A stretch of DNA of 64,000 nt from Candidatus Melainabacteria bacterium. Lineage in GTDB: Bacteria > Cyanobacteriota > Vampirovibrionia > 2-02-FULL-35-15. Location: NCBI GenBank assembly GCA_023250195.1, contig JAHFBF010000005.1, positions 172,025 through 236,024 on the forward strand, given 5' to 3'. Of this stretch, positions 35,054 through 64,000 are shown piece after piece (within the stretch, counting starts at the first letter, position 1; each line of letters begins with the position of its first letter). Under the pieces are notes generated by a model that saw only the letters and a program-made list of their open reading frames with translations, did no database searches and was not told the DNA's origin. The position numbers and the translations under genes are program-made.

Positions 35054-35686
35054 ATGAAAGTTTTAGGAGTGATTCTTGTAGTATTATTTAGTTTTATGCC
35101 AACATTTGCTAAAGAAAACATAATCCGTACAAATGAACTTGTGGAAATTATCAAGCTTGATCCTGCATTAAAGCTCGATATTCGCTATGCTACAAAAAAT
35201 AATTTTCTGGGCAGACCTGTTTATAAGGCAGCAAAAGTATTTCTTCAAAAACCAGTTGCAGAGGATTTGATTAAAGTAAATAAAGAATTATACAAAGATG
35301 GCTATGGGATTTTAGTTTTTGACGGGTATCGTCCATGGTCTGTTACAAAGCTTTTCTGGGATGAAACTTCACCTGAAAAGAGAAAATTTGTTGCTGATCC
35401 AAAAATTGGCTCTATTCATAATCGCGGCTGTGCAGTTGATTTAACTCTTTATGATTTAAAAACCGGCAAAGAAGTAAAAATGCCAAGTGAATATGATACT
35501 TTTTCAGAGGCAGCTTATCCTTCTTATATGGGTGGTACTACTGACGAACGCTCTAAAAGAGATTTTTTAATTAAACAAATGCAAAAACATAGCTTCACTG
35601 TTTATGAGTATGAATGGTGGCATTTTAATCATAAAGACTGTGATAAATATGATATTTTAGATATTTCTTTTGAGGAGATTAAGTGA
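35054..35686 (+). CDS. D-alanyl-D-alanine dipeptidase, peptidase M15D (VanX-like), secreted. The start is taken at Met-30 of the listed ORF.
   Basis: Signal peptide MKVLGVILVVLFSFMPTFA. VanX motifs GYRPWS, SIHNRGCAVDLT, EWWHF. Confidence 0.75.
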   Translation: MKVLGVILVVLFSFMPTFAKENIIRTNELVEIIKLDPALKLDIRYATKNNFLGRPVYKAAKVFLQKPVAEDLIKVNKELYKDGYGILVFDGYRPWSVTKLFWDETSPEKRKFVADPKIGSIHNRGCAVDLTLYDLKTGKEVKMPSEYDTFSEAAYPSYMGGTTDERSKRDFLIKQMQKHSFTVYEYEWWHFNHKDCDKYDILDISFEEIK

Positions 35687-35792
35687 AGACTTTCCGTAAG
35701 TGAAAGTCTGAACGCTGGAAATTAAGATAGCCCAGAAATTAAGTTCAAAGCTGATTTTAATCTCTGTTAAAATCAGCGGAATATAAAAAACA

Positions 35793-35863
35793 GGTGGCAT
35801 TTTAATCATAAAGACTGTGATAAATATGATATTTTAGATATTTCTCTGGAAGAGGTTAAGTAA
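35793..35863 (+). repeat. Imperfect direct repeat (53/53 identical, then 14/19) of the last ~71 bp of the VanX-like CDS, including an in-frame stop
   Basis: ggtggcattttaatcataaagactgtgataaatatgatattttagatatttc occurs at 35616-35668 and again at 35793-35845. The tails encode SFEEIK* versus SLEEVK*. Confidence 0.6.
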
Positions 35864-35965
35864 TCGCATTAAATAAAATTAATCTGACCTGGTATTGACT
35901 TTTCAAGATAATTGAAATAACATATTTAACAATGTTAGCAAAGAAGCTTATTTAAGGAGGATTTT

Positions 35966-36142
35966 ATGAGTAGTTTATCAATAGTACATTCTGGAGCAGG
36001 TTCTAGATCTGCTACACATCCAAGGAGAGATTTTACACATAATCGTAGATTGACAGAAAAACCTTTGGCAAAACCAGCTTCTATTCCTCATATTCCCCTT
36101 GCAATAATTCAAGGGCGTGAATTAGGAAGCCGAAAGACATAA
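35966..36142 (+). CDS. Small ORF (58 aa). Shares a duplicated leader with the next gene.
   Basis: Strong RBS aaggagg 6 nt upstream. Leader tttaacaatgttagcaaagaagcttatttaaggagg. Confidence 0.3.
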   Translation: MSSLSIVHSGAGSRSATHPRRDFTHNRRLTEKPLAKPASIPHIPLAIIQGRELGSRKT

Positions 36143-36188
36143 TTAGTTTAACAATCTTAGCAAGGAAGCTTATTTAAGGAGAAAATAT

Positions 36189-41939: not shown

Positions 41940-42590
41940 ATGCAAAACTTTTTTACAAAACTTTATAACTTTAATAAAAAACTATTACCAACAATAGTTC
42001 TAATTTTTATTTTTGCACCTGTTTCATTTTCACAAAATTTAAATAGACAGGTAGAATCAACCAGTCGCTTTATCTTTGACTCTATCCCCTTAAATCTTGA
42101 TGAAATCACTGATTCTGCTGACAGAGTATTTGCCGGGGTTTGTGAAGAGATTGAAGAGATTGAAAAAGATCCTATCTCTAATCTTAGAGTTGTAAAATAT
42201 ACTTTTAAAATTACTGAAGCGATTATAGGCATAAATTCTGATGAAATTACTTTTACCCAGTGGAAGCCTACTACGACAGATGTTGGTTATGTAGTTGGTG
42301 AAAAATATGTAATTTTTCTCTATCCTAATAGCAGACTGGGTTTGACAAGTCCTGTGGGTTATATGCAGGGAAAGTTTCTGGTGGAGAAACAAGGTTCAAA
42401 CCGTGGGGTTGAACTTATAAGAAACAAATTAAATAATATTGGATTATCAAAAAATCTGAAAACCCAAAAAAGAATTTCAATTGGTACTGATCAATCCTTG
42501 AATAACTATATTCAGGAATGTTCTGAAGCTGGAAAGCCGATTAAATATAGAGATTTTATTAACGCTGTCAGGTATTTATCAGGCAAATGA
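41940..42590 (+). CDS. Secreted hypothetical protein (216 aa); its stop overlaps the start of the metzincin gene
   Basis: Signal peptide. ATGA overlap with the next gene. Confidence 0.4.
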   Translation: MQNFFTKLYNFNKKLLPTIVLIFIFAPVSFSQNLNRQVESTSRFIFDSIPLNLDEITDSADRVFAGVCEEIEEIEKDPISNLRVVKYTFKITEAIIGINSDEITFTQWKPTTTDVGYVVGEKYVIFLYPNSRLGLTSPVGYMQGKFLVEKQGSNRGVELIRNKLNNIGLSKNLKTQKRISIGTDQSLNNYIQECSEAGKPIKYRDFINAVRYLSGK

Positions 42591-45001
42591 AAAAACTGCT
42601 TACAATCTTGCTTTTAATTTCACTTACATTTAGTCAATGGAGTGTAAATGCTAATGGTCCTTTAATAGTAATAAATAATAAAGCAGTTACTTATGGCAGT
42701 AGGCCTCTTGTCTACAGATACGATCAAGGAACACTTGGAAGTCTTTCAAATTCAAGTGCTACTTCATTGATAGCTTCTCTTTTTTCAGAATGGGAAGGAG
42801 TTCAAAGTGCTAATTTAACCTTTCAGCAGGATAATCCCGGTACTCTTAGTGCTGATATAAATTCTACTAACTATACTCCAATATTAGAACCATCTTCACG
42901 ACTTGGTTATACCCCGTTTATTTTTGATACAGATGGTTCAATAGTAAAAGATATTTTAGGGAACGGATCAGAAAATCAGGTTATTGGATTTGCCGGCGCT
43001 ACATTTTTATTTATAGGAGATCCTTATGAAATTGCTGAATCACAGGCACTCTTTAATGGCAGATTTATAAATGGCATAAATAATGGATCTGATGCTGAAC
43101 TTAGTTTAAATACTTTTAAAAAGGCGATAATTCATGAGGTAGGACATGCTGTAGGACTCGATCATTCCCAGATTAATGTGGATGCTCTTGATTCCGGGGT
43201 TACACAGGATGTAAAGAATTCGCCACCTTTAATGTTTCCATACGCTATAAATGAACTTTTTTCAATTATGAGAGATGATGCTTCAGGAGCTTCACTGCTT
43301 TATCCAGATAGTACAGAACTTTCTAACTATGGGACAATTCAAGGAAAAGTTTTTAGAGCAAATGGCGCTACGCCTGTCTTAGGTGCAAATGTAATTGCAA
43401 GAAATGTAAGTAACTCAAGAATTGAAGCAGTGTCATGTGTGTCAGATTATCTTATCGATAATACAGGCTCATTTACTTTGTTTGCAGTGCCTGCGGGAAA
43501 TTATAGAATTGAAATTGAACCGATATCTACTTTGTTTACCGGAGGATCAAGTGTAGGCCCATACTCAGAAACTATAAATGGGCAATCCTTTCTAAATCCT
43601 GTCCCTAAAGGGTTTTACACAGGACCAAATCAATTAATTGTAAGTGATATAAATAGTGCATTAATTATAAATGTTGTTAGTGGACAGACAATTCAGGGCG
43701 TAAATATTATTGCCAAATTAGCTTCAAGTTCGTCTTCAAGTTCAAGCAGCTCATCATCAGGTTCAGGGAGTTCCTCTTCAAGCAGTTCCTCATCTTCATC
43801 TAGTTCAGGAGGCTCTTCTTCTAGCTCCTCATCCAGTTCCAGTAGTTCAAGTTCATCGTCAAGCAGTTCCTCATCTTCATCTAGTTCAGGAGGCTCTTCT
43901 TCTAGCTCCTCATCCAGTTCCAGTAGTTCAAGTTCATCAAGTAGTTCTTCATCCTCGTCTAGTTCCAGCAGCTCCTCATCCAGTAGTTCAAGTTCATCGT
44001 CTAGTTCCAGCGGCTCTTCATCCAGCAGTTCAAGTTCATCATCAAGTTCAAGTAGTTCTTCTTCAGGAACTCCCACACCAGAACCATCTCCCTCGCCAAG
44101 TCCACCTAGTGGCGGCGGTGGGGGTGGTGGCCCAGTATTTGTTCCTTCATCAACTCCTTCTCCAACAGGTAGTTCAGCCAGCTCATCATCTTCAAGTGGT
44201 TCTGGTTCAAACAATGTCATTTTAACCCCAGACTCTTCAAACCCAGCTGTTATTAATACTTCAAACGGTTCGTCATCAGGGGGAAGTATTGGAAATACCA
44301 CTCAATCCGGTGATCTAAATTTCGATATAATTTATTCCCCGCTACTTCCAGAAACAATTTCTTTGCCGTTAATTCCTGATAAGTTACTTGGAAAAATAGG
44401 AATTGCGTATCCAGGATCAAACCCCTCATTTGAAATCAAATTTCCACAGAATAACTTACCATCAAATATTGCTTCAATAGATTTAGAGGATAAAGATGGA
44501 ATAATTTTCCCAAATATTCTTTTTAACGTAACAAAGATTTTTAATAGCACAGATAAGTTAATCTTAAGCCTAACAATCCCTGACAACGTTTCATCCGGAA
44601 TTTTGAAAGTGAGAATAAATTTTGCTGATAGCAGAAGATTAACAGGTCTAGTTGCAGTTGTTGACTTCCTCAATTTAATAAAAGGTTTAAATGGGAAAGG
44701 AAAAACTGTAGGTAAACCACAGATCACCCAAATTACAACCCTTAAAAAAAGGAGAGACATTGTGCTGAATGTTCTTGGAAATAATTTTGTTGGAAGTGAA
44801 AATGTAAACTCAAATACTACAATTACTCTTTTCCCGGCTGATTTAAATGTTTCAATTAAGCTTCAATCGGTCTCTAAAAATGGTAAAAATCTTGTATTGA
44901 AATTAAACCTGTTGGATGGTTTTGAAAAATCAGCACGAAGTGTAATTTCCATTTCTACACCAAGAGGAATTGTTTCTGTACCGCTTGTGATAAAGAAGTA
45001 A
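42587..45001 (+). CDS. Secreted zinc metalloprotease (metzincin, HExxHxxGxxH) with a long poly-Ser/Gly linker and a C-terminal beta-rich domain
   Basis: Signal peptide. HEVGHAVGLDHS. ~130-residue Ser run encoded by 81-bp tandem DNA repeats. PTPEPSPSPSPPSGGGGGGG spacer. Confidence 0.6.
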   Translation: MKKLLTILLLISLTFSQWSVNANGPLIVINNKAVTYGSRPLVYRYDQGTLGSLSNSSATSLIASLFSEWEGVQSANLTFQQDNPGTLSADINSTNYTPILEPSSRLGYTPFIFDTDGSIVKDILGNGSENQVIGFAGATFLFIGDPYEIAESQALFNGRFINGINNGSDAELSLNTFKKAIIHEVGHAVGLDHSQINVDALDSGVTQDVKNSPPLMFPYAINELFSIMRDDASGASLLYPDSTELSNYGTIQGKVFRANGATPVLGANVIARNVSNSRIEAVSCVSDYLIDNTGSFTLFAVPAGNYRIEIEPISTLFTGGSSVGPYSETINGQSFLNPVPKGFYTGPNQLIVSDINSALIINVVSGQTIQGVNIIAKLASSSSSSSSSSSSGSGSSSSSSSSSSSSSGGSSSSSSSSSSSSSSSSSSSSSSSSSGGSSSSSSSSSSSSSSSSSSSSSSSSSSSSSSSSSSSSSSSGSSSSSSSSSSSSSSSSSGTPTPEPSPSPSPPSGGGGGGGPVFVPSSTPSPTGSSASSSSSSGSGSNNVILTPDSSNPAVINTSNGSSSGGSIGNTTQSGDLNFDIIYSPLLPETISLPLIPDKLLGKIGIAYPGSNPSFEIKFPQNNLPSNIASIDLEDKDGIIFPNILFNVTKIFNSTDKLILSLTIPDNVSSGILKVRINFADSRRLTGLVAVVDFLNLIKGLNGKGKTVGKPQITQITTLKKRRDIVLNVLGNNFVGSENVNSNTTITLFPADLNVSIKLQSVSKNGKNLVLKLNLLDGFEKSARSVISISTPRGIVSVPLVIKK
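43730..44100 (+). repeat. In-frame tandem repeat array (unit ~81 bp) encoding the poly-Ser linker
   Basis: agcagttcctcatcttcatctagttcaggaggctcttcttctagctcctcatccagttccagtagttcaagttcatc is repeated back-to-back (43781-43857 and 43865-43941), with further degenerate copies. Confidence 0.6.
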
Positions 45002-45916: not shown

Positions 45917-46906
45917 ATGAGAAAACAAAATATTAAAATAGCTTGCTTTTTATTTTTTTTAATTTTATTTATACAGGCAAACTGTTTTTCTTTATCTGCA
46001 CAAACCCAGGAAGAATCACTCTACAAACGACTGGGAGGAGTATATAACATAGCAGCGGTTATAGATGATTTTGTTGACAGGCTTCTTTCTGATCCGACAA
46101 TAACTGCAAATAAAAATGTTGTAAGCTCACTCGGAAAAATTACAAAACCGGGACTGAAATACCAGCTTACAGAACTGCTTTGTCAGGCAGCAGGCGGGCC
46201 ACAAAAATACAACGGTCGTTCAATGAAAGAATCTCATCAAGGATTAAATATTACAGAAACAGAGTGGCAGGCTATGGTGAAAGATTTTCTTGCAACACTT
46301 GCAAAATTTAATATTAAAGATCTTGAACAGAATGAATTGCTTGTAATTGTTGGTGGTACAAAAAGTGATATAGTTGTTTCTGCTCCACAGGGGGCTCAAC
46401 CACAAGTGCCTGTATTGCCAGGGACTGTTCCAGTAAATCCAGCTCAGCCACTACCTCAGCTAGCACCAAACCTACCATCAGCAATACCAACACTGCCCAA
46501 TCCGGCAAATGTACCATCAGCAGCACCAGCATTGCCGACACTGCCAAGCCCAGCAAACATACCATCAGCAGTACCAGCAATACCAACATTGCCAAACCCA
46601 GCAAACATACCATCAGTAGTACCGGCATTACCGACTTTACCTTCATTGCCAGATAATGTAGTACCTTCTAAACCTACAACAAAGCCATCTTTACCAGCAG
46701 TGCCGGTTATAACACCGCCTTCTATTGATTTAGTTCGACCCAGATTAGAAATCCCTTCAAATTCTTCAGGTAATATTGCTCCTCAGATACAACCACAGGC
46801 TGAAACAGCGCCGAAGAACGATACACCACAGGATGCTGCTGTTACTGATATCGAGGATGAAGAAGATGAATTACCACCAGAACCAACTTTAGAACCGGCT
46901 AATTAG
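45917..46906 (+). CDS. Truncated haemoglobin (group I 2/2 Hb) domain protein with an N-terminal signal peptide and a C-terminal Pro-rich tandem-repeat tail
   Basis: LYKRLGGVYNIAAVIDDFVDRL...LGGPQKYNGRSMKESHQGLNITETEWQAMVKDF matches the trHb fold. N-terminus MRKQNIKIACFLFFLILFIQANCFSLSA. Tail repeats (PTLPNPANxPSxxPAx) x4. Confidence 0.65.
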   Translation: MRKQNIKIACFLFFLILFIQANCFSLSAQTQEESLYKRLGGVYNIAAVIDDFVDRLLSDPTITANKNVVSSLGKITKPGLKYQLTELLCQAAGGPQKYNGRSMKESHQGLNITETEWQAMVKDFLATLAKFNIKDLEQNELLVIVGGTKSDIVVSAPQGAQPQVPVLPGTVPVNPAQPLPQLAPNLPSAIPTLPNPANVPSAAPALPTLPSPANIPSAVPAIPTLPNPANIPSVVPALPTLPSLPDNVVPSKPTTKPSLPAVPVITPPSIDLVRPRLEIPSNSSGNIAPQIQPQAETAPKNDTPQDAAVTDIEDEEDELPPEPTLEPAN

Positions 46907-51309: not shown

Positions 51310-51658
51310 GAAGTAAACATTAGGTAAGCAAATCTCTCCCTTTTAGATTAATCATAGCTGCTCTATATAATATAATGGATATTAATGGATTTTGATTCTA
51401 CTTTTAACTTTTTAAAAGAAGAGCTGGAGAGAATATTAGAAAATGTTAAGTGATGAAGAAAAAAAGAATTGTTAGAAGATGGACTTAGTTCCTCTCGGAG
51501 AGAGGACTTTAGAGCATGTAAGGATCTTAAGTCAAACATCTTGCTTGATGACTATATCAAGTTCTTGGATGATATTCAAAAAGTTTTTGGACAGTTTGAA
51601 ATTTCTCAGAAGATAACAAAGTGTGATTTAAATCAGCTTTAAAATCTTAGGATTTAGA

Positions 51659-51722
51659 GACAAAGTGAGAACTGAAATAATAGAATACAAAGGCCATTTA
51701 TCCCCTTAGTGCTCTTTCACTT
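51659..51722 (+). repeat. Intergenic repeat family, copy A (degenerate)
   Basis: gacaaagtgagaactgaaataatagaatacaaaggccattta...ccccttagtgctctttcac matches both the 5' block (caaagtgagaac) and the 3' block of copy B. Confidence 0.35.
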
Positions 51723-52121
51723 AGATGATTCTATAGGCAATGAAGAATATTTATGCAGAACTTTTAATAGATTAGCTTCTGAAATTATTCCAATTAGTTT
51801 TCCTTTATCGTCAACTACCGGTAAACAGCCAAACCTGTTAATCATCATTATTTCTATTGCATCTTTTAAGTCAGTGTTTGACTTAACGCAGGTCACCTGT
51901 TCCTGTTTTAACATTGCCGATCTGACTGAAATTTGATCAGGGTTGTGAAAGATAGTTTCAATTATTTCTCTAAGGGTAATTAATCCAACTAACTTTTTAG
52001 TTTGATCCACAATAGGCAGGTTTCTAATTCTTTCTTCTTTCATGAACTTTGAAGCATGCAGAACAGTATCTTCTTCATATAAGAAGTAAGTGTTAGCTTC
52101 CATTACATCTTTAACTTTCAT
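51717..52121 (-). CDS. CBS-domain pair protein
   Basis: Two CBS motifs (VKDVMEANTYF... and ...GIISEANLLK). Confidence 0.7.
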   Translation of the reverse strand: MKVKDVMEANTYFLYEEDTVLHASKFMKEERIRNLPIVDQTKKLVGLITLREIIETIFHNPDQISVRSAMLKQEQVTCVKSNTDLKDAIEIMMINRFGCLPVVDDKGKLIGIISEANLLKVLHKYSSLPIESSK

Positions 52122-54184: not shown

Positions 54185-54217
54185 TACTGGAACAGTAAAA
54201 GTTGAATGGACGTTAGA

Positions 54218-54346
54218 AACAAAGTAAGAGCTAAATTAAGAGAATATAGAGGGCATATTTTTATACTGGATTTGGTTCCTGCTGCGTGATGTACCCCTAA
54301 TGCTCTTTACTATGTCTCACAAGGGAAGCAGTACCAAATTTGTGCA
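54218..54346 (+). repeat. Intergenic repeat family, copy B
   Basis: aaacaaagtaagagctaaattaagagaatatagagggcatatttttatactggatttggttcctgctgcgtgatg...tgctctttactatgtctcacaagggaagcagtaccaaatttgtgc. The embedded peptide frame lacks an ATG in this copy. Confidence 0.5.
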
Positions 54347-55292: not shown

Positions 55293-55332
55293 TTTCCAAC
55301 ATTTAGTTTCTACATCTACGTAAAATAATTTT

Positions 55333-55445
55333 CGGGACTCAGGTACAAAGTGAGAACCAAATTAATGGAGCATAAAGGGCATATTTACATATCGGACTTA
55401 GTTCTGGCTGTGTGATTTATTACAGGGACAGATTTGCTTTATCAA
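55333..55445 (+). repeat. Intergenic repeat family, copy C
   Basis: cgggactcaggtacaaagtgagaaccaaattaATGgagcataaagggcatatttacatatcggacttagttctggctgtgTGAtttattacagggacagatttgctttatca. Embedded 16-codon ORF MEHKGHIYISDLVLAV (55365-55415). Confidence 0.55.
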
Positions 55446-55494
55446 GGTGTATGTTGTGAAAAATTTTAATTGAAGATGCTAAGATATATGCATG

Positions 55495-55508
55495 TGCGAA
55501 TATTCGCA
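55495..55508. promoter_or_regulatory. Perfect 14-bp palindrome TGCGAATATTCGCA, 19 bp upstream of the ArsR start. Candidate ArsR/SmtB operator.
   Basis: Seen directly; RBS aaaggtgg follows. ArsR-family repressors typically bind imperfect 12-2-12 palindromes overlapping their own promoter. Confidence 0.4.
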
Positions 55509-55526
55509 TAAAGATAAAGGTGGTTT

Positions 55527-55913
55527 ATGAAAAACCTTAGAGAGTTTAAAGCAGACTTTTTTAAAGTACTTGCTAGCCCTATTAGAATTCAAATAATAGA
55601 TGAGTTACGTGATGGCGAATTAACTGTCAATGAATTAAAGGAAAAGTTAGAAATCGAAGCTCCGAATGTATCTCAACAACTTGCAATACTCAGAAATAGT
55701 AACATCGTAAAAACCAGAAAAGAAGGAAATAATATCTATTATTCCATAAGACATAACATTATATTCAAAATGTTGGATCAGACAAAAAAAATATTCAATG
55801 AGCATTTACTTGATGTTCAAAGTTTGCTAAAAAAAATATCTATAAATTTAATTCTATTTGTTTTGAATCTTGAGAATCTAATGAATTTTGGAGTTGATAT
55901 AGCTTTAATTTAA
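55527..55913 (+). CDS. ArsR/SmtB-family transcriptional regulator
   Basis: Winged-HTH signature FKVLASPIRIQIIDELRDGELTVNELKEKLEIEAPNVSQQLAILRNSNIVKTRKEGNNIYYS. Confidence 0.75.
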   Translation: MKNLREFKADFFKVLASPIRIQIIDELRDGELTVNELKEKLEIEAPNVSQQLAILRNSNIVKTRKEGNNIYYSIRHNIIFKMLDQTKKIFNEHLLDVQSLLKKISINLILFVLNLENLMNFGVDIALI

Positions 55914-55962
55914 CGATAGAAACTTTAATGGGATTTTTTATATTAAGGAGGCTTGGCTAAAA

Positions 55963-56559
55963 ATGGATAAGAAAGATGGTTTGTTAAAAATTGATGTTTT
56001 ATCAGTTGGATTATTTGGACTTGCAGTAGGTGCTCTAACATTAGGCTTTGTCCAAATGGGAGTAATTCCGCACAATGATGATTTAGCCATATCAATTATT
56101 TGTCTTATTTTTGGTGGAATTGTTCAAGTACTTGCTGGCATGGTTGACGTAAAATATCACGATCAACTTGGTGGTACTGCACTTACAATGTATGGTTTTT
56201 ATTGGACAACAATGTTTATAGTTAAGATTTTAGGCTTAGTACAGGGTTTTCATTGGGATAATATTCTTTTTCTCCCAATAGTCACAATTTATGCAACATT
56301 TTCTGCTGTGATGATTTATCTTACAGGACATAAGTCATTTGCTTTAATGCTACTCCATATCTTTATTACAGCAGTTTTTATAATAGATATTCTTGTCAAA
56401 CTAAATTATCCACTTGAGTATTATGCAGGAGTTGATCATGCAATAATTGGAGTAATTGCTCTTTATCATGCAATGATAACACTTGTGAATAAATACACCG
56501 GCAAGGCTGGATATCTATTAGGTAAGCCTCCATTTAAGTTTAAAGAAAGTCATAAATAA
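55963..56559 (+). CDS. GPR1/FUN34/YaaH (AceTr, SatP-like) family channel
   Basis: 6 TM helices. FGGIVQVLAGMVDVKYHDQLGGTALTMYGFYWTT aligns to the SatP motif [34 protein letters not shown]. Confidence 0.7.
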   Translation: MDKKDGLLKIDVLSVGLFGLAVGALTLGFVQMGVIPHNDDLAISIICLIFGGIVQVLAGMVDVKYHDQLGGTALTMYGFYWTTMFIVKILGLVQGFHWDNILFLPIVTIYATFSAVMIYLTGHKSFALMLLHIFITAVFIIDILVKLNYPLEYYAGVDHAIIGVIALYHAMITLVNKYTGKAGYLLGKPPFKFKESHK

Positions 56560-58523
56560 TGATGGGTAACCTTTTGCTCTTTAAGTTCTCATTATTCCTT
56601 TTTATTACAGGGGCATTTTTTTCACTTATATTGGGATTTTATTCAAAGAAATTCAGTACATATGTTTCAGGAATTTTTGCTGCTGTTTCTGCATCGCTTA
56701 GCTTAGTAAGTTCAATTAATATTTTACTATATCAAAACAATTTCACTATCAAGCTACCAATAAACATTCCACTGCTGACAGCAAATATTGGAATGGATCC
56801 ATTCTCAGCATTTTTTATCTTTCTTATTTCACTCATTGCAATTCCTGTATCAATTTATTCAATTGGTTATATGAATTCAGAACCTTCAGATACACCGGTG
56901 CATATCTTAGGATTTTTATACAATTTGTTTTTATTATCAATGATTCTTGTTGTAAGTGCAAAGGATGCATTGCTATTTCTAATCTTTTGGGAATCCATGA
57001 CATTAATATCTTATGGATTAATTGTATCTAATACTTCTAGTGATGAATCACGATCTGCCGGTTTTATTTATTTGTTAATGACTCATATTGGCTCTGCGTT
57101 TTTGCTTTTTTTGTTTTTAATAATGGCAAATTATTCAGGAAGTTTTGCATTTGAATCATTTCATGATATCTATAAAACAATACCTGATAGTTTAAATCTT
57201 TTATTATTTGTTTTTGCTTTAATTGGTTTTGGAACTAAAGCAGGTTTAGTTCCTTTACACATATGGCTTCCAGAAGCTCATCCGGCAGCTCCCAGTCATG
57301 TATCTGCTCTTATGTCCGGAGTCATGATTAAAACAGCTATCTATGGAATACTGCGTATAACCTTTGATTTTCTGAATCCTGCATCATATTGGTGGGGAAT
57401 TGGATTACTTTTAATAGCAGTAACTACTGCATTAGTTGGCATTATTTATGCTTCTCAGGAAAACGATATAAAAAGACTTCTTGCATATAGCAGCATTGAA
57501 AATATTGGCATAATTTTTATTCCTATTAGTGCAGCAATTATTTTTTATAGCTTAAAGCTCTATGAGCTTGCAGGGATTTCAGTTGTTATAAGTTTATTTC
57601 ATACCTTAAACCATTCTATTTTTAAAGGATTACTTTTTATGGGTGCTGGTTCAGTAATTTCTGTAACACATACAAGAAACCTTATAAAACTTGGCGGGCT
57701 AATTAAAAAAATGCCGCAAACATCGTTATTCTTTCTAATAGGAGTATTAGCAGTATGTGCGTTTCCTCCACTTAACGGCTTTGCAAGTGAATGGCTTATA
57801 TTCCAAAATTTACTTTCATTATTCAAGACTTCTTCCAGTACCATAAAAATTGTAGCTATAATCTCTGCATCACTGTTAGGTTTAACAGGTGCTATATGTG
57901 CTGCAACTTTTTTAAAAGCATTCTCTGGTATATTCCTGGCATTTCCTAGAACACATCAGGCAGAATATGCTCATGAAGCCTCTTTATCCATGACTTTTGG
58001 CTTGTTTACATCTGCAGCATTATGCTTATTAATTGGGGTTTTGCCTTTATTTGTCATTTTGCCAATCTGCACTGCGGTTTCAACACTAATGAAATCAAGT
58101 AGTGTAACTCCTGAGATGTTTTCTGATGGAAATACCTTACATATAAGCAATATAATCCCTGGATATTATTCGCCTGTATTACTAACAATTCTTCTTATAG
58201 TATTTTCTCTTTTTGCACTTATCCTTCCCAAATTAATTGGCAGTAAAACTACCACGAGAAAGGATGAAACCTGGAGTTGTGGGATTACACCTAGAGCTGA
58301 GTTTGAATATACTCCCAGTGGCTATGCACAACCTTTAGAAGTTATTTTTTCAGGATTACATGTTCCTGCAGATTTTTATTATAAGTGGATTTATCTTCCT
58401 ATTTATAATGCTTTGCACAGGTTTTCTCATAAATTAAAACCAATTCAATCAGGAGTTGTGCAAATTTACCTGACTTATATCTTTGTTGCTTTAGTGGCTT
58501 GCATATTGTGGGTGAGTTTATGA
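56559..58523 (+). CDS. NuoL/HyfB/MnhA-like proton-translocating (antiporter-type) membrane subunit
   Basis: 654 aa, ~16 TM helices. Proton_antipo_M motifs (WLPEAHPAAPSHVSALMSGVMIKTAIYG). Confidence 0.8.
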   Translation: MMGNLLLFKFSLFLFITGAFFSLILGFYSKKFSTYVSGIFAAVSASLSLVSSINILLYQNNFTIKLPINIPLLTANIGMDPFSAFFIFLISLIAIPVSIYSIGYMNSEPSDTPVHILGFLYNLFLLSMILVVSAKDALLFLIFWESMTLISYGLIVSNTSSDESRSAGFIYLLMTHIGSAFLLFLFLIMANYSGSFAFESFHDIYKTIPDSLNLLLFVFALIGFGTKAGLVPLHIWLPEAHPAAPSHVSALMSGVMIKTAIYGILRITFDFLNPASYWWGIGLLLIAVTTALVGIIYASQENDIKRLLAYSSIENIGIIFIPISAAIIFYSLKLYELAGISVVISLFHTLNHSIFKGLLFMGAGSVISVTHTRNLIKLGGLIKKMPQTSLFFLIGVLAVCAFPPLNGFASEWLIFQNLLSLFKTSSSTIKIVAIISASLLGLTGAICAATFLKAFSGIFLAFPRTHQAEYAHEASLSMTFGLFTSAALCLLIGVLPLFVILPICTAVSTLMKSSSVTPEMFSDGNTLHISNIIPGYYSPVLLTILLIVFSLFALILPKLIGSKTTTRKDETWSCGITPRAEFEYTPSGYAQPLEVIFSGLHVPADFYYKWIYLPIYNALHRFSHKLKPIQSGVVQIYLTYIFVALVACILWVSL

Positions 58524-59491
58524 ACGAAGAATTGAAAATTATAATCATAATTTTTTGTCATTTAGCTATATTGCTCTTGCTTTCTCCACTTGTAAATTCC
58601 ATAATAAAAAAAACTAAAGCATTGCTGCAGGGAAGAAAAGGAATTCCACTGGCTCAAGGCTATTACGATTTAATTAAATATTTTCATAAGGAAACTGTTA
58701 TTTCAAACCAAACATCATGGATATTTCTTATAACACCGGTGATTCTTTTTTCTTCAATTCTTCTTGCAGGTTTATTTGTTCCACTGTTTTCTGAATTTGG
58801 AAGCATAAAGATTTTAGGAGGAATTATAGTTTTTGTTTATCTGCTGGGACTTGGCAGATTTTTTATGTCTCTTGCTGCTATGGAGCCTGGAAGTGGTTTT
58901 TGTGGAATGGCAAGCAGCAGAGAAATGATGCTTTCAGTTTTAATAGAGCCTGTCATGCTTCTTTCTCTTATTGTTTTATCCTTACTAGCCGACTCAACAC
59001 AAATTTTTACGATAATAAGTTCAATTGCAAGACATAATTTAACTTTGCCATCTACAGGCTATGTGCTTGCAATAATAGCTTTATTTATTATTTCAATAGC
59101 AGAAATAGGAAGGATTCCATTTGATAATCAAGAAACTCACTATGAACTTACTATGATACATGAAGGGATGCTTTTAGAGTATTCCGGCAAACTACTTGGA
59201 TTAATGATCTGGTCTGGCTGGTTAAAACAATTAATAATAATATCTTTAATCAGTAATCTAATTTTTCCATGGGGAATTACAAATACGTTTACTTTAAGCA
59301 GTATTTTAATTGGGTTCATATTTTATATTCTTAAGGTTTTTATATTTTCAATCTTTATTGCTTTAATCGAAACCATTATTGCAAAAGTCAGATTGTTTAG
59401 AGTAAAAGATATCCTGGTTGCTTCTTTTGTAATTTCAGTTTTAGCGTTAATTTTAATTATTCAGGAATCAGGAAAGGGTTCCTTACTATGA
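58520..59491 (+). CDS. NuoH/HycD/HyfC-like membrane subunit. Start taken at the Met overlapping the upstream stop (ATGA).
   Basis: ~8 TM helices. Conserved acidic loop FDNQETHYELTMIHEGMLLEYSG matches NuoH/HycD signatures (E...EGES-like). Confidence 0.7.
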   Translation: MNEELKIIIIIFCHLAILLLLSPLVNSIIKKTKALLQGRKGIPLAQGYYDLIKYFHKETVISNQTSWIFLITPVILFSSILLAGLFVPLFSEFGSIKILGGIIVFVYLLGLGRFFMSLAAMEPGSGFCGMASSREMMLSVLIEPVMLLSLIVLSLLADSTQIFTIISSIARHNLTLPSTGYVLAIIALFIISIAEIGRIPFDNQETHYELTMIHEGMLLEYSGKLLGLMIWSGWLKQLIIISLISNLIFPWGITNTFTLSSILIGFIFYILKVFIFSIFIALIETIIAKVRLFRVKDILVASFVISVLALILIIQESGKGSLL

Positions 59492-60159
59492 CAAACCTGC
59501 TAATTAAAGAACTAACACCTTCATTATTGAGTTACTCTACGGTTATTTTACTGTTAATGAGTATCTTAATTGCTGGCAGCAACAGATTACAATCCATAGT
59601 TAAATTTTATGCATTTCAGTCATTATGCTTAGTAGTAATCACACTGATTGTTGGATTTTCAACTAGTAATTCCGAGACTATTCGAATAGCAACAATTACA
59701 TTTATAGGCAAGTGCCTAATCATACCGTTAGCCTTAAATTTTGTTATAAATAAAACTCAGGTTCATAAAGAAGTTGATCCTATAATAAGCCCACCAACAA
59801 CGGTACTTATTGTCTGTATATTAATTGCGCTTGTATATGGTTTAACTTCAACACCAAATTTTGCAAAAATAGCTTATTCCTTAGGATTGTTTGATACGGC
59901 TATATCCATAATATTAATTGGATTATTAATAATGATAAGCAGAAGAAAAGCACTTACACAAATTGTTGGATTATATGTAATGGAAAATGGAATTTTTGCA
60001 CTTACAGTTGACACAGTGTTTGGAATGCCATTTGTTGTGGAGATGGGGATTTCTCTCGACTTATTTATTGGCGTACTGATAATGGGTATCTGGGTTCTTA
60101 GAATCAAACAATCGTTTGACTCGATAGATGTAAGTAAATTAAGCAAATTAAAAGGATAA
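59488..60159 (+). CDS. HyfE-like small membrane subunit of group-4 hydrogenase/Mrp-type modules
   Basis: 223 aa, 6-7 TM helices. Position between the HycD-like and HyfF-like genes, as in hyf operons. Confidence 0.45.
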   Translation: MTNLLIKELTPSLLSYSTVILLLMSILIAGSNRLQSIVKFYAFQSLCLVVITLIVGFSTSNSETIRIATITFIGKCLIIPLALNFVINKTQVHKEVDPIISPPTTVLIVCILIALVYGLTSTPNFAKIAYSLGLFDTAISIILIGLLIMISRRKALTQIVGLYVMENGIFALTVDTVFGMPFVVEMGISLDLFIGVLIMGIWVLRIKQSFDSIDVSKLSKLKG

Positions 60160-60163
60160 TATT

Positions 60164-61660
60164 ATGGATATAACTTTATTTTTTTTAATTCCAATTATCA
60201 CGGCAATACTTTGCTTAATACCAAATAACATTAGATGGTTAGCTCCCATTCAAATAGCCGGAACATCGTTTTTATTCCTAGTTGTAATTAGATTATTAAA
60301 TAATATCCTTCAATACAAGGTAATCAAAGCATTTAATAACCTGATTTATATAGATGCTTTTAGCGGGTTATTGATTTTATTAATTTCAACAGTTGGCTTG
60401 CTTGTTTCTTTATATTCAGCAGGGTACATGACTAAAAGCCCTGAAGGAAAAACTGTTTCCACCTGGAAATTGAAAAGATATTACTTCTTATTAAATATTT
60501 TTATACTTACCATGTTAACTGTAGTCACTGCAAATAACATTGGACTGGTATGGGTTGGAATTGAAATAACTACACTGGTCTCAGCATTCTTAGTAGGATA
60601 TTATAATAAGCAAACCAGTATTGAAGCTGCATGGAAGTACATCATACTCTGCACTGTAGGCATTGCATTTGCAATGATAGGAATTATTTTATGTTACTAC
60701 GGGGCTATTCATTCTGGAGGCATTGAGTCACTAAGTCTAAACTGGGATTATTTACTTTCAATAGGAAATAAGTTTGATCCAAGCATAATGAAACTAGCAT
60801 TTGTATTTATATTAATTGGCTATGGAACAAAAGCAGGTCTTGCTCCCATGCATTCATGGCTGCCTGATGCACACAGCGAAGCACCCACTCCTGTCAGTGC
60901 ATTACTTTCCGGTGTTCTTTTAAAATGCGGCATCTATAGCATTATTAGATTTTCTATTTTAGCTAATGAATCTCTAGGTGCAGCATTTACAAATCAGATG
61001 CTGCTTTTCTTTGGAATCCTTTCAATTGGATTATCAGTTCCATTTATAATTACCCAACACCAGATTAAACGTTTACTGGCATATAGCAGTCTTGAACATA
61101 TAGGAATAATTGTTACTGGTTTTGGGATAGGAAATCCAATATCAATCTTTGGTGCACTATTTCATATGCTTAACCATGCAATGGTGAAAACTTTAATGTT
61201 TTTTTCTGCCGGCAATCTTGCATTAAAATTTCAGACAAAAGATATGAGTAAAATCAAATGTGCGGTTAATATAATGCCCTTTACCGGAACAGTTCTTTTA
61301 ATTGGAGGGCTTGCTTTAGCTGGTTCTCCACCATTTTCAGTTTTTTTAAGTGAGTTTTATATTATCAAAGCTGGAATATTTGAAAAGCACTGGGTTATAA
61401 GTACATTATTTCTACTTTTCTTAGTTATTATTTTTGGGGCATTAATGCATCACATCATGGGCGTCACTCTTGGAAATAATTTAAACAATACAACGGAAGA
61501 AAAAGCTAATATACAAAAAGGAGAAGTAAGCAAATCAGGGATTGTAGCATCATTGATTCCTTTACTTATCATATGTTTATTGGGTGTTTGGATGCCACAA
61601 TCATTATTTAAACTGCTCAATGCATCTGTAGAAATTATTACAGGAAAGGGAATCTTATGA
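60164..61660 (+). CDS. NuoN/NuoM/HyfF-like proton-translocating membrane subunit
   Basis: 498 aa. WLPDAHSEAPTPVSALLSGVLLKCGIYS antiporter-module motif. Confidence 0.8.
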   Translation: MDITLFFLIPIITAILCLIPNNIRWLAPIQIAGTSFLFLVVIRLLNNILQYKVIKAFNNLIYIDAFSGLLILLISTVGLLVSLYSAGYMTKSPEGKTVSTWKLKRYYFLLNIFILTMLTVVTANNIGLVWVGIEITTLVSAFLVGYYNKQTSIEAAWKYIILCTVGIAFAMIGIILCYYGAIHSGGIESLSLNWDYLLSIGNKFDPSIMKLAFVFILIGYGTKAGLAPMHSWLPDAHSEAPTPVSALLSGVLLKCGIYSIIRFSILANESLGAAFTNQMLLFFGILSIGLSVPFIITQHQIKRLLAYSSLEHIGIIVTGFGIGNPISIFGALFHMLNHAMVKTLMFFSAGNLALKFQTKDMSKIKCAVNIMPFTGTVLLIGGLALAGSPPFSVFLSEFYIIKAGIFEKHWVISTLFLLFLVIIFGALMHHIMGVTLGNNLNNTTEEKANIQKGEVSKSGIVASLIPLLIICLLGVWMPQSLFKLLNASVEIITGKGIL

Positions 61661-63258
61661 ACCTGACTAATGAAGATTTAACATCTGCAAGATTGATGAG
61701 TTTACTAAAAGATTATCGCTCTGAAGCAAACACTATTAATCCTAATCATCTGATTTTTCTTATTGAAAAAGAATCTTTACAAAATGCAATAGAAACTTTG
61801 TATAAAGAAAATGATATTAAAACATTATTTCTTACCATGGTTGCAACAGATGAAAGACAATTAAATGGAAAATATAAATTGCATTTAATTTTTCTTATCC
61901 TTAATACAGATATTTTAGTAACATTTAAAATTAATTTAGATCAGACAAAACCTTCTTATCCTGCTATTAGCAAGTTCCTTCCTGCTGTGGAATGGTTCGA
62001 ACGTGAGATTCATGACATGTTTGGAATCGTTGCAGAAGGAATAGATTTGCCGCCGCTAGTACTTCATCGGGATTTTCCTCACGGGAAATATTTTCCTATG
62101 CGGAAAGATTTTGAGATAAATAAAGAAGTTACAATTTCAGAAGTACCACATCAATTTACACAACCACATGCAGAAGGAATGCATCAGGTAGCAGTCGGAC
62201 CGATACATGCCGGGATAATTGAACCTGGACATTTAAGATTCTGCACAATCGGTGAACAAATACTTGAATTTGATGCCCAGCTTTTTTACACACATAAAGG
62301 AATTGAAAAAATTGTAGAAGATAAAACTATAGAAGAAGGATTGGTATTAGCAGAGCATACATGTGGAATGTGTTCATATTCTCATTCTACGGCTTATTGC
62401 CAGGCAATTGAAAGTATTGGTCAAATCAATATTCCTAAAAGAGCTTTATATATAAGAACTATTTGTTTAGAACTGGAAAGATTAAGCAATCATTTATCAG
62501 ATCTGTCGGCAATCTGTTCTGCCGGTGGATTTGCTATTGCTTCAATGCCCGCCGCTAAGTTTAGAGAAAAAATTATGCAATTAATTTTTAAGCTTGCAGA
62601 ACACAGATTCTTTAGAGGATTAAATGCTATAGGTGGATTAAGCAAAGATATTAATGATGGCGACTTTGAGTTTCTGAAAAAGAATCTCCACGCCTTAAAA
62701 AAAGAATTTCACTCGTTGGAGGAAATGATAATTGGTTCAGATACGCTTCTTGATCGCCTTGAAACTACCGGGGAATTGAATTTCACGCAGGCAAAAAATA
62801 TTGGTTTGGTGGGTCCAGCAGCAAGAGCTTCTGGAATTGATATTGATTTAAGGAGAGATTTTCGCTATGCAGCTTATCAAGACTTTATCCTGCAATTCCA
62901 TATTGAAACAGAAGGAGACGCTTTGGCAAGAACAAAAATCAGAATTAAAGAACTTTATGAGACATTAAATTTCATCCCGAAAATTATTGATCAACTCCCT
63001 TCAGGAAGAGTTAAAGAAGAAATGCCTGAACTGCTTCCATTTCAACCTGGAATTGGAATAATAGAGTCTGCCAAAGGATCCCTTATACACTGGCTAATGT
63101 TAGATAATAAAAAGAAAATATTCAGATGGCATGTGAGAAGTGCATCATATATGAATTGGCGGGGTGTAGTGCAAGCAACAAAGGGAAACAATATTGTTCC
63201 TGATGCTCCACTTGTTAATAAGAGTTTCAATCTTTGTTATGCATGTGTTGACAGATAG
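61657..63258 (+). CDS. Group-4 [NiFe]-hydrogenase large subunit fused to an N-terminal NuoC-like domain (HycE/HyfG-type)
   Basis: NuoC-like PAISKFLPAVEWFEREIHDMFGI. L1 motif CGMCSYSH (CxxCxxxH). C-terminal L2 motif NLCYACVDR (CxxCxxR) at the very end. Confidence 0.8.
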   Translation: MNLTNEDLTSARLMSLLKDYRSEANTINPNHLIFLIEKESLQNAIETLYKENDIKTLFLTMVATDERQLNGKYKLHLIFLILNTDILVTFKINLDQTKPSYPAISKFLPAVEWFEREIHDMFGIVAEGIDLPPLVLHRDFPHGKYFPMRKDFEINKEVTISEVPHQFTQPHAEGMHQVAVGPIHAGIIEPGHLRFCTIGEQILEFDAQLFYTHKGIEKIVEDKTIEEGLVLAEHTCGMCSYSHSTAYCQAIESIGQINIPKRALYIRTICLELERLSNHLSDLSAICSAGGFAIASMPAAKFREKIMQLIFKLAEHRFFRGLNAIGGLSKDINDGDFEFLKKNLHALKKEFHSLEEMIIGSDTLLDRLETTGELNFTQAKNIGLVGPAARASGIDIDLRRDFRYAAYQDFILQFHIETEGDALARTKIRIKELYETLNFIPKIIDQLPSGRVKEEMPELLPFQPGIGIIESAKGSLIHWLMLDNKKKIFRWHVRSASYMNWRGVVQATKGNNIVPDAPLVNKSFNLCYACVDR

Positions 63259-63269
63259 AAAGGAACATC

Positions 63270-63815
63270 GTGTTAAATATTTTAAAATATTGTAGTACTA
63301 AAAATAAAGAAGTAAATGATCTTTTATTACCTATGATTAATGCATCAAATATTGAAGATGTAAAAATTGAATTGTCTAAAATTGAACTTCTGGATAAAAA
63401 TGTTAGGAAAGCATTGAGCAGATCTATACTTATACGTCATTTAGATACAGGTTCCTGTAATGCAGAAGAAGCTGAACTCCTTGCGCTATCCAATCCCATA
63501 TATGATGTAACCAGATTTGGTATTGATTTTACTGCTTCACCAAGGCATGCAGATGTTTTAACAGTAAGTGGACCTGTAACCAGACATCTTAAAATTGCAA
63601 TGGAAAAAACATATAATGCAATGCCTTCTCCAAAAATTGTAATAGCTCTTGGAGATGGTGCTTGTAATGGTTCTATTTATGAAAATACATATGCTTGTTT
63701 AGGAAAAATAGATAATTTCTTGCCAGTAAATATTTATATTCCTGGTAACCCACCTACGCCAATTCAAATTCTTAAAGGATTACTTCTCTGCAAGTATTTA
63801 TTGAACAAAAAATAG
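63270..63815 (+). CDS. NuoB/HycG-like hydrogenase small subunit, short (181 aa), with only 2 of the 4 canonical [4Fe-4S] Cys ligands
   Basis: FGIDFTASPRHADVLTVSGP aligns to NuoB RFG..RASPRQ.D. GSCNAEE versus canonical SCCxVEM. GACNGS versus GACANSGG. IPGNPP versus PGCPP. Confidence 0.7.
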   Translation: MLNILKYCSTKNKEVNDLLLPMINASNIEDVKIELSKIELLDKNVRKALSRSILIRHLDTGSCNAEEAELLALSNPIYDVTRFGIDFTASPRHADVLTVSGPVTRHLKIAMEKTYNAMPSPKIVIALGDGACNGSIYENTYACLGKIDNFLPVNIYIPGNPPTPIQILKGLLLCKYLLNKK

Positions 63816-63819
63816 AAAT

Positions 63820-63959
63820 CGGACCTCAGGTACAAAGTGAGAACTAAATTAATGGAGCATAAAGGTCATATTTACATACCGGATTTAGCCCCTGTTGCAT
63901 GATTCACCACCTAGTCAGTCCTCTTCACTGTATCTCACAGGGACAGATTTGCTTTATCA
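63820..63959 (+). repeat. Intergenic repeat family, copy D (longest)
   Basis: cggacctcaggtacaaagtgagaactaaattaATGgagcataaaggtcatatttacataccggatttagcccctgttgcaTGAttcaccacctagtcagtcctcttcactgtatctcacagggacagatttgctttatca. Embedded ORF MEHKGHIYIPDLAPVA (63852-63902). Confidence 0.55.
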
Positions 63960-64000
63960 TTGGCTGAGAAGCTTTTTACAGTACAATCTTTGCAATGAGG

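Follow-up and report, generated by a model that had tools for sequence, protein, structure and literature searches.

A group 4f (Ehf)-type hydrogenase-related operon in Melainabacteria with a small subunit lacking a complete set of [4Fe-4S] ligands

A stretch of 64,000 nucleotides from a Candidatus Melainabacteria bacterium (assembly GCA_023250195.1, contig JAHFBF010000005.1, positions 172,025 to 236,024; hereafter the window) carries, at 55.5-63.8 kb, an operon for a six-subunit complex related to the group 4 [NiFe]-hydrogenases and to respiratory complex I. Alignment to solved homologues indicates that its small subunit is without a complete set of [4Fe-4S] ligands and that the only iron-sulfur (Fe-S) cluster of the complex has been lost, in company with a large subunit which retains all four Ni-Fe-binding cysteines. 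The complex is identified with high confidence, on sequence grounds, as a clade-specific, FeS-free derivative of the group 4f (Ehf) family. The layout of its core is standard for that group; the replacement of the small-subunit ligands is the novelty of the Melainabacteria clade to which it belongs.

Cluster ligands and the Ni-Fe site

The small-subunit gene (63270-63815, + strand) encodes a 181-residue protein of the NuoB/HycG/MbhJ fold (PF01058, 3e-24). Its ligand positions were mapped with phmmer against the solved MbhJ (6cfw_J) and HycG (7z0s_G), the alignments being ungapped across the ligand regions. The first cysteine is kept (C63), whilst the second is replaced by glutamate (E66), the third by glycine (G130) and the fourth, in the PGCPP motif, by asparagine (N160). 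SCNAEEAE in the window protein lies opposite SCNGCDIE and GCNGCEIE in the two references, LGDGACNG opposite IGACPTGG and YGACGNSG, and PGNPP opposite PGCPP. A further cysteine, C132, is found two residues after the canonical Cys3 position. The first-pass annotation of this DNA had described a Cys-depleted small subunit retaining two of the four ligands. The depletion is confirmed by alignment to HycG and MbhJ, and the count is about right, with C63 in register but the second cysteine, C132, shifted by two.

The same substitutions recur in 113 relatives of the small subunit (51-100% identity) aligned with both references. None of these, nor the window protein, has the four-Cys proximal [4Fe-4S] site expected of a group 4 hydrogenase. 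The Cys2 position is occupied by Glu in all 113 sequences. The canonical Cys3 position is Gly in 108 and Ala in five, with Asp just before it in 111 and Cys two residues after it in 112, and the Cys4 position is Asp in 91, Asn in 21 and Ser in one. Cys1 is retained in 75 sequences and is Asn in 18, Ser in 16 and another residue in four, so that a third of the set has lost it to Asn, Ser, Thr, Pro or Phe. The six next matches outside the clade are canonical (CNACE, GSCAC, PGCPP). The clade has meanwhile gained invariant residues of its own (H57, E66, E67, E69, D129, C143 and C174, with C132 nearly invariant), and conserved motifs surround the former cluster site: RHLD, NAEEAE, GDGAC, YACLG and a C-terminal Cys. 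An AlphaFold2 (AF2) model of the small subunit has the NuoB/HycG fold, with 7z0s_G as its best match and 6cfw_J superposing with a root mean square deviation of 1.9 A; the former cluster loops are of low confidence in this model.

Could the missing ligands be an artefact of errors in sequencing or assembly at these codons, or the result of pseudogenisation? This is extremely unlikely. An identical small subunit is encoded on five contigs (the four places listed for it being four ENA assemblies), which together with the clade-wide pattern of substitution rules out sequencing error; at the PGNPP codon in particular such an error is ruled out, Asp, Asn or Ser being present there in all 113 relatives. 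All eight open reading frames (ORFs) of the operon are intact. Moreover, the small subunit is the best conserved of the core subunits, with 59-81% identity to the window protein in eight other loci of the clade, where the large subunit reaches 50-74% and HyfE 38-83%, which argues against decay as well as error. A split HyfC gene in one other assembly (L002) is the sole point in favour of an artefact, and decay of the operon was rejected on the conservation data. The pattern of conservation indicates instead that the FeS-free operon is under purifying selection. In L002 itself, HyfC is divided into ORFs of 95 and 235 residues (L002 1-1135), and the 5' part of the sequence, comprising the end of HyfB and the start of HyfC, is 81-85% identical to the window and the remainder 100%; this assembly is either a strain variant or chimeric.

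The large subunit (533 residues; 61657-63258, + strand) consists of a NuoC-like N-terminus fused to a NuoD/[NiFe] domain (PF00329, PF00346, PF00374). It matches HycE from end to end (7z0s_E, 5.6e-85), and residue-level alignment with HycE and MbhL places C236/C239 and C527/C530 at the Ni-Fe ligands of both proteins. All four cysteines are present in 65/65 large subunits of the clade and in 54/54 outgroup proteins. The first pair lies in the motif CGMCSYSH and the second in CYACVDR, with flanking residues that differ from the group 4 norm (EH-x-CGMC and FNLC); the only other conserved cysteine is C287. Since CYACVDR forms the C-terminus, maturation should require no endopeptidase, and the missing C-terminal extension is a trait of the whole 4f family. 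The 65 clade proteins show no variation at the proton-gate Glu189 of the beta1-beta2 loop or at His279; in the canopy comparison described below, the proton-gate Glu of this loop and His284 are likewise unchanged in the clade.

The canopy of residues over the Ni-Fe site has fared differently. In the structure of formate hydrogenlyase, the canopy is formed by R478, D529 and S283 of HycE, of which the Asp is strictly conserved; the Arg is conserved among hydrogenases and is Lys in most complex I, where the NDUFS2 counterparts are K407, D458 and N185 (PMC9474812). The window protein has K473, N525 and N278. The canopy Arg position is Lys in 64 of the 65 clade proteins as opposed to Arg in 50 of the 54 outgroup proteins, and the acid position is Asn throughout the clade as opposed to Glu throughout the outgroup. 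Similarly, the Arg of the L1 motif R-x-C-G-x-C, present in every outgroup protein, is His in 53 clade members and Asn in 12. The pairing of canopy Arg and Asp over the Ni-Fe site by which group 4 hydrogenases have been defined (PMC9474812) is thus not found. The intact NiFe site claimed by the first-pass annotation holds for the four cysteines, both CxxC pairs being kept, but not for the canopy, where Arg has become Lys and the acid Asn.

Membrane subunits and membership of group 4f

The eight ORFs of the operon, all on the + strand, were defined from the ORF listing and profile searches, and every family assignment is borne out by Pfam and NCBIfam, in agreement with the tightly spaced gene string first read from the sequence. 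Neighbouring genes overlap by 1-4 nt or are separated by 4-11 nt, the sole exception being a 49-nt gap between the two leading genes, which encode an ArsR/SmtB-family regulator (128 residues; 55527-55913; PF01022, 1.3e-12; NF033788, 2.2e-25) and a divergent AceTr (GPR1/FUN34/YaaH) channel (198 residues; 55963-56559; PF01184, 3e-11). The AceTr gene is co-transcribed with those of the complex. The core then begins with a HyfB/NuoL/MrpA-like antiporter-type subunit (654 residues; 56559-58523; NF005086, hydrogenase 4 subunit B, 619 bits), for which the best solved match is HycC (7z0s_C, 2e-66). It is followed by a HyfC/HycD/NuoH-like subunit (323 residues; 58520-59491; PF00146, 7e-40; HycD, 7z0s_D, 1.9e-46), the ATG at 58520 being the start chosen by gene callers, a HyfE-like membrane subunit (223 residues; 59488-60159; NF008556, 4e-28) and a HyfF/NuoN/MrpD-like antiporter-type subunit (498 residues; 60164-61660; NF005044, hydrogenase 4 subunit F, 491 bits). 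The HyfE assignment is the least firm, its NF008556 score of 98.7 bits lying below the cut-off of 136 and its match to PF00420 being weak.

The residues associated with ion translocation are retained in these subunits. Both antiporter-like proteins keep the motifs of the Glu in transmembrane helix (TM) 5 and of the Lys residues in TM7, TM8 and TM12. In the HyfB-like subunit the charged motifs read WES (TM5 Glu), GTKAG (TM7 Lys), MIKTA and HSIFKG (TM12 Lys), and in the HyfF-like subunit GIE, GTKAG, LLKCG and HAMVKT are visible. The acidic NuoH loop is kept in the HyfC-like subunit as PFD...E...EYSG. The operon therefore encodes the NuoH-like and NuoL/M/N-like membrane subunits expected of a group 4 hydrogenase.

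No ferredoxin-like ORF lies inside or after the operon. The ENA contig L001 is identical to the window and continues for 10 kb past 64 kb; inspection of this stretch revealed an ECF-sigma fragment, an anti-sigma factor, an LTXXQ protein, AAA_14 ATPases and small toxin-antitoxin-like genes, and no ferredoxin, hyp or hycI/protease genes, so that the missing-subunit claim of the first-pass annotation, which a ferredoxin subunit and hyp genes there would have refuted, stands. In the window itself, the 50 ORFs of 120 residues or more outside the operon were searched with Pfam and included no hyp gene. FdhF, HycB/HycF and HycI are absent from the operon and its flanks, which sets it apart from the formate hydrogenlyases (group 4a), and the hallmarks of complex I, namely a NuoB with the CC...C...C N2 site, a NuoD without NiFe cysteines and the subunits NuoA, I, J and K, are likewise not encoded by the operon. 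Nine loci of the clade, the window included, were compared over 10 kb on either side, and in none of them was a ferredoxin, formate dehydrogenase or hyp gene present. A scan for HypB/C/D/E/F motifs in all 93 loci found nothing, not even beside the canonical outgroup operons, and the proximity of hyp genes is for that reason uninformative.

The absence of a HycF/NuoI-type subunit, which had been taken to make the six-gene core atypical, is not the anomaly. Scanning one genome per species yielded 80 family loci, and the order HyfB-C-E-F-large-small is found in nearly all of the full-length ones, in many phyla and in Desulfosporosinus among others; the window operon follows this same group 4f order. 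Ferredoxin-type motifs are present at the N-terminus of 37 of the 80 small subunits, a separate small ferredoxin gene lies between the large- and small-subunit genes in seven loci, and 36 loci have neither a fused nor an adjacent motif, so that absence is common. Six-gene loci termed group 4f have been described in Desulfosporosinus orientis (Desor_1265-1270; PMC7248197), in Desulfitobacterium hafniense (ACL22288-93; PMC9888536) and in Methylocystis, where ehfA-F, assigned to a 'previously uncharacterised' group, are induced at acid pH (10.1101/2025.08.29.672306). The window operon resembles these in its six genes and their order, in the NuoC fusion, the four NiFe cysteines and the lack of a C-terminal extension, and also in that such loci often have ArsR as a neighbour and often do without a ferredoxin subunit. 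It differs from them in a small subunit without proximal [4Fe-4S] ligands, in the change of canopy Arg/Glu to Lys/Asn and of the L1 Arg to His/Asn across the clade, and in the clade-specific accessory genes for AceTr and a DUF2490 protein.

A protein 100% identical to the large subunit of the window is encoded on four contigs, the longest of 241 kb. Its relatives with 47-85% identity, where labelled, are assigned to Candidatus Melainabacteria, Vampirovibrionales, Obscuribacterales or 'Cyanobacteria bacterium', and those that follow (40-45% identity) come from Firmicutes, anammox bacteria, Chloroflexota and others, and the closest named ones (40-43%) are 4f-type proteins of Firmicutes, with D. 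orientis at 43%. A rough neighbour-joining (NJ) tree of large subunits places HycE (4a) and MbhL (4d) outside the HyfG-like family and resolves three lineages within it: a broad 4f lineage, a Nitrospira/candidate phyla radiation (CPR) lineage which is Ehr (energy-converting hydrogenase-related)-like and has lost the NiFe cysteines, and a monophyletic Melainabacteria clade. The G+C content is about 34% in the operon and in the rest of the window alike, the remainder being ordinary chromosome (S13, S11, RpoA, Adk, SMC, ScpAB, DapB and others). That the operon is chromosomal and belongs to an organism of the Melainabacteria (Vampirovibrionia) type is held with high confidence.

Loss of the cluster is not confined to this clade. 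All four small-subunit cysteines are kept in 76 of the 80 family loci, the exceptions being two from Chloroflexota (L057 and L074), in which the large-subunit cysteines are kept, one from CPR (L070), in which they are lost, and a Vampirovibrionales member of the clade itself (L004). In a HMMER search of 1.84 billion representatives the clade collapses to three 50% clusters, and about 25 of the 150 nearest 50%-identity clusters (P0247-P0390) are without cluster ligands, mostly having Asp, Glu or Ser instead (for example SDGSEEW / GTDACSG / PGS, with PGCPP changed to PGDPP or PGSPP). In the two cases for which partners were checked, L070 (Magasanikbacteria) and L093 (GCA_030043235.1), the Fe-S-free small subunit is paired with a large subunit devoid of NiFe cysteines, which makes L093 a fully cofactor-free, Ehr-type operon. 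On this evidence cluster loss in NuoB/HycG-type small subunits is recurrent, having arisen independently several times, and it is the Melainabacteria clade, together with the two loci from Chloroflexota, that shows the odd combination of a lost cluster with four retained NiFe cysteines. In the literature, no account was found of a small subunit without a cluster alongside a large subunit with its cysteines intact; Ehr complexes and one putative group 4f hydrogenase have been reported in Melainabacteria without discussion of the small subunit (10.1101/328856; PMC6349859).

The Ehr complexes, which have been reported in Margulisbacteria and Nitrospira as well as in Melainabacteria (PMC6349859), share the complex-I-like module, the small subunits of L070 and L093 are also Fe-S-free with Asp or Glu in place of Cys, and Asn at the canopy-acid position is common to the clade and the Nitrospira/CPR proteins. 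Ehr complexes are, by contrast, defined by loss of the Ni-Fe-binding cysteines, all four of which are invariant in the window clade. The E. coli formate hydrogenlyases Hyc/Hyf have homologous HycC/D/E/G-type subunits, and 7Z0S provides the best solved match for HyfB, HyfC and the large and small subunits, although by sequence MbhJ scores marginally higher for the last. They differ in possessing FdhF, HycB, HycF and an eight-cluster relay, none of which the window operon has; it has, moreover, no C-terminal peptide or HycI, an AceTr rather than an FNT channel, and a cluster-free small subunit.

Regulator, neighbouring genes and dispersed repeats

The identification of the channel as AceTr rather than FNT, already proposed from the sequence alone, agrees with the profile matches, albeit narrowly for NF038013 (AceTr_1, 51.1 bits with a cut-off of 50), and the family signature NPAPLGL reads DVLSVGL by eye. 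The hyf operon of E. coli also ends with an anion channel gene, focB. AceTr is present in four of the nine clade loci, upstream of the core in the window and immediately after the small-subunit gene in L086, L090 and L091, where the orthologues are 81-86% identical. Other transporters are linked to the core as well: in L089 a Na_H_Exchanger gene overlaps the small-subunit gene, in L092 a SulP transporter adjoins the operon, and in L091 SulP is accompanied by a beta-carbonic anhydrase with CMDNR...HTNC motifs. In five of the nine loci (L086, L089, L090, L091 and L092), and not in the window, the AceTr or SulP gene has as its neighbour a gene for a DUF2490 protein with a signal peptide. Thus the genes attached to the clade core vary, and are nearly always those of transporters. 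Fatty-acid desaturases and a globin are also among the neighbouring genes of the clade. In three loci an ECF sigma/anti-sigma/LTXXQ (CpxP/Spy-like) module lies near the operon (L001 11098-12350, L092 2008-3354 and L091 3554-4828), that of L001 being about 0.55 kb downstream of the small-subunit gene, shortly past the end of the window, and having a sigma gene reduced to a 95-residue fragment. The module is a hint of some connection with envelope or ion stress.

The ArsR regulator at the head of the operon has a winged-helix HTH_5 domain and no cysteine in its 128 residues. The alpha3 (ELCVCD) metal-binding site is therefore missing, and an alpha5-type His/Asp/Glu pattern was not seen by eye. 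A perfect 14-bp palindrome, TGCGAATATTCGCA, at 55497-55510 (unstranded), 17 nt upstream of the ArsR start, is a candidate ArsR operator. It is identical upstream of ArsR in L089 and has one to four changes in L084, L086 and L090. The window ArsR shares 58-87% identity with its counterparts at the head of the operon in these four loci, and 33-55% with the ArsR proteins adjoining group 4f operons in about 13 outgroup loci from other phyla; ArsR and AceTr are conserved across the clade as well as or better than the small subunit. A precedent is provided by the predicted hydrogenlyase-type operon rv0081-rv0088 of M. tuberculosis, headed by Rv0081, an autoregulating ArsR without cysteines or a metal site which binds an upstream inverted repeat and represses the operon (10.1101/465575). 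The window operon shares with it both the Cys-less ArsR and the upstream inverted repeat, and, to judge from these sequence features, the operon is under the control of a Cys-less ArsR repressor which probably acts at the conserved palindrome. The window ArsR is longer than its relatives (107-109 residues), and its approximately 21 additional hydrophobic C-terminal residues resemble read-through past an ancestral stop. Scans for promoter and terminator consensus sequences gave no more matches than shuffled sequences, or fewer.

The operon lies between two copies of a dispersed intergenic repeat, copy C, of the short form (55322-55455), and copy D, of the long form (63809-63965), both on the + strand; copy D begins within the last codons of the small-subunit gene. 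These had been taken to bracket the operon as a movable unit. Both copies are real and 82% identical to each other, but the family is not specific to the operon, since at least eight same-strand intergenic copies of 130-170 nt punctuate about 24 kb, each following one to eight genes. Further + strand copies are found in the window at 51650-51780 and 54196-54340 and beyond it at L001 12359-12530, 14683-14850, 15994-16165 and 17496-17665, whilst no + strand copy is found in the window between 1 and 51 kb. Each repeat comprises a conserved first part of about 100 nt, a variable stretch and a conserved CTCACAGGGACAGATTTGGTTTATCA tail. The first part contains a peptide-like short frame (...RYKVRTKLMEHKGHIYIPDL...) which ends in TGA in every copy.

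There is little to show that the operon itself is mobile. Two assemblies which are identical from HyfE to the small subunit and through the following genes diverge exactly at the 5' edge of one repeat copy, one of them carrying an additional RHH/PemK pair. The array is long, and the repeat core is absent from eight related loci with orthologous operons, which have other chromosomal contexts. The array looks cassette-like, and the operon may thus sit in a recombination-prone region, although the features of an integron-type cassette array were not observed, there being no attC-like hairpin and no integrase beside the array, the nearest tyrosine recombinase lying at 22.9 kb in the window. The possibility that the repeats are attC-like or structured RNAs was rejected, as single-copy folds gave z-scores of 0 to +1.2 relative to shuffles and the consensus fold reached only -4 kcal/mol; no stable or covarying structure was detected in them. 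Rfam and tRNA scans of the window returned two tRNAs only, and nothing at the repeats.

Elsewhere in the window, a XerC/D-like tyrosine recombinase (22866-23642), a UPF0102-family ORF (23639-24004) and an IS200-like Y1 transposase (24001-24531) form a stretch about 28 kb upstream of the repeat array. Two pairs of intergenic direct repeats lie downstream of a D-Ala-D-Ala dipeptidase gene, at 35616-35861 and 35914-36181 (69 nt, 94% identity, spacing 177 nt; and 46 nt, 85% identity, spacing 222 nt). A Ser-rich tandem coding repeat (43727-44050) is located inside an 804-residue ORF (42587-45001), and a coding repeat with 48-nt periodicity (46440-46635) inside an ORF with a truncated-globin domain (45917-46906). 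A 506-residue HEAT_PBS-repeat protein (29986-31506) has phycobilisome-lyase-type repeats which fit an organism of the cyanobacterial lineage.

Possible functions of the complex

With the cluster lost and no ferredoxin-type subunit encoded, the canonical electron path to the large-subunit site is absent. The core idea of the first-pass annotation, that of a metal-site-bearing catalytic subunit without an electron-input path in an uncharacterised complex, is upheld and reinforced by the ligand-loss data. Since there is no relay and the canopy Arg/acid pair, which fast H2 activation requires, has changed, the complex has most likely ceased to be an H2-evolving enzyme driven by ferredoxin or formate, as far as gene content and residues can indicate.

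The reading preferred here, which is tentative and given slightly less than an even chance, is that of an Ehr-like, FeS-independent H+/Na+-translocating module which would function with co-encoded transporters in weak-acid, bicarbonate, pH or ion homeostasis. The complex would consist of four membrane subunits (two antiporter-like, one NuoH-like and one HyfE-like) and a two-subunit cytoplasmic cap. The membrane arm, in which all antiporter-type charged residues are kept, would translocate H+ or Na+ in partnership with AceTr here and with SulP or a Na+/H+ exchanger in relatives. The cap would have been remodelled into a structural or regulatory plug, possibly metal- or proton-binding, in which the carboxylates at the former ligand positions might provide a proton path or a new metal site. 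Gene content, ligand loss, canopy changes, conservation and synteny were observed directly, whereas the absence of redox turnover, the translocation of ions and the cooperation with transporters are our inferences. Mrp-type Na+/H+ antiporters have antiporter-like subunits with similarly intact Glu/Lys relay residues, though no homologues of NuoB, NuoD or NuoH. By analogy, a functional precedent may be seen in complex I, which works as a Na+/H+ antiporter when cut off from its redox arm in the deactive state (PMC3464577), and a physiological hint in the acid induction of group 4f in Methylocystis.

Several observations weigh against such a module. The invariance of the four NiFe cysteines, the beta1-beta2 loop Glu and His279 in 65/65 proteins is hard to explain without chemistry at the site, and true Ehr proteins (Nitrospira L072, CPR L070 and L093) have lost the NiFe cysteines. 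A module without redox input has only existing ion gradients as an obvious energy source. A redox-active metal could be held by the new invariant set of Cys, Asp, Glu and His residues in the small subunit, the genome may contain electron-carrier or hyp genes away from this locus, and the linkage to transporters is a correlation of synteny only. It is the absolute conservation of the four cysteines, above all, which keeps three alternatives alive.

The first of these, unlikely though not negligible, is a working [NiFe]-hydrogenase matured by Hyp proteins encoded elsewhere, in which electrons would travel by way of a non-standard small-subunit centre (such as a metal held by C132, C143, D129, E66 and D/N160) or a partner protein encoded elsewhere, and H2 turnover would be coupled to ion translocation as in Ech and Mbh. 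The invariant cysteines, Glu189 and His279 are as expected for such an enzyme, the small-subunit substitutions are non-random and leave a conserved Cys/carboxylate set, and the missing C-terminal extension is common to the entire 4f family. Furthermore, a canopy Lys need not abolish activity: the R479K variant of E. coli Hyd-2 is reported to have greatly decreased rates yet to be slowly active and reversible (PMC10430524). On the other hand, no [4Fe-4S] or [2Fe-2S] site built from one or two Cys plus carboxylates is known, and Cys1 is non-Cys in a third of the sequences. The small subunit has no Fe-S motif and the large subunit adds only C287 (a systematic screen did not extend to the membrane subunits), neither the operon nor its immediate surroundings contain a ferredoxin-type ORF, no partner gene occurs within 10 kb on either side in the nine loci, and Asn has replaced the canopy Asp, for which strict conservation has been described.

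A second alternative dispenses with the relay altogether. In its specific form, H2 would be split heterolytically with direct transfer of hydride to a substrate in the pocket that became the quinone site of complex I (for example an H2:quinone reaction), or H2 binding would gate ion flow; this has a slim chance of being correct. The broader proposal of a [NiFe]-type or other Cys4-metal centre working without an iron-sulfur relay, either passing hydride to a quinone-like substrate or providing H2- or metal-gated ion translocation, is improbable as well, if marginally less so. Retention of the Cys4 site without any relay is what this chemistry would predict, the canopy is nearer the complex I state (Lys, and in the window Asn at the third position), and the desaturases and globin nearby suggest an oxygen-exposed lifestyle which would be compatible with a quinone-using respiratory chain. 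Direct hydride transfer from a NiFe site has nevertheless no known precedent, the canopy Asp which complex I also needs has been lost, and the hyp genes are only presumed, no data on them in these lineages having been found in the literature.

The third alternative, very unlikely, concerns inorganic-carbon or weak-acid handling: a Zn-type (Cys/His/Asp) site in the cap, driven by the antiporter arm, would carry out vectorial conversion or transport of CO2/HCO3- or carboxylates. Analogues would be the cyanobacterial NDH-1MS/CupA and DabAB. SulP, beta-carbonic anhydrase and AceTr genes adjoin clade operons, and the new invariant C143, D129 and H57, with the nearly invariant C132, offer potential ligands in the small subunit. 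Against this, the cap resembles no carbonic anhydrase in sequence and lacks a CxDxR/HxxC motif, the linkage to SulP or carbonic anhydrase is seen in only two of the nine loci, and the AF2 loops bearing the candidate ligands are of low confidence.

Group 4f is among the last [NiFe]-hydrogenase groups without biochemical characterisation, and genome surveys routinely label its members as H2-evolving. In the Melainabacteria, the sister group of the Cyanobacteria, inferences about hydrogen metabolism may be wrong in this instance, because the large subunit alone reads as a hydrogenase and yet no electron route leads to it. The recurrence of Fe-S-free NuoB-type subunits suggests that cofactor-poor, complex-I-like machines form a wider class. 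Were a relay-free centre to prove correct, the Melainabacteria clade would be a living intermediate between membrane hydrogenases and machines of the complex I/Ehr type. Furthermore, the clade is a natural setting in which to see what components of the hydrogenase/complex I coupling machinery can function without redox chemistry.

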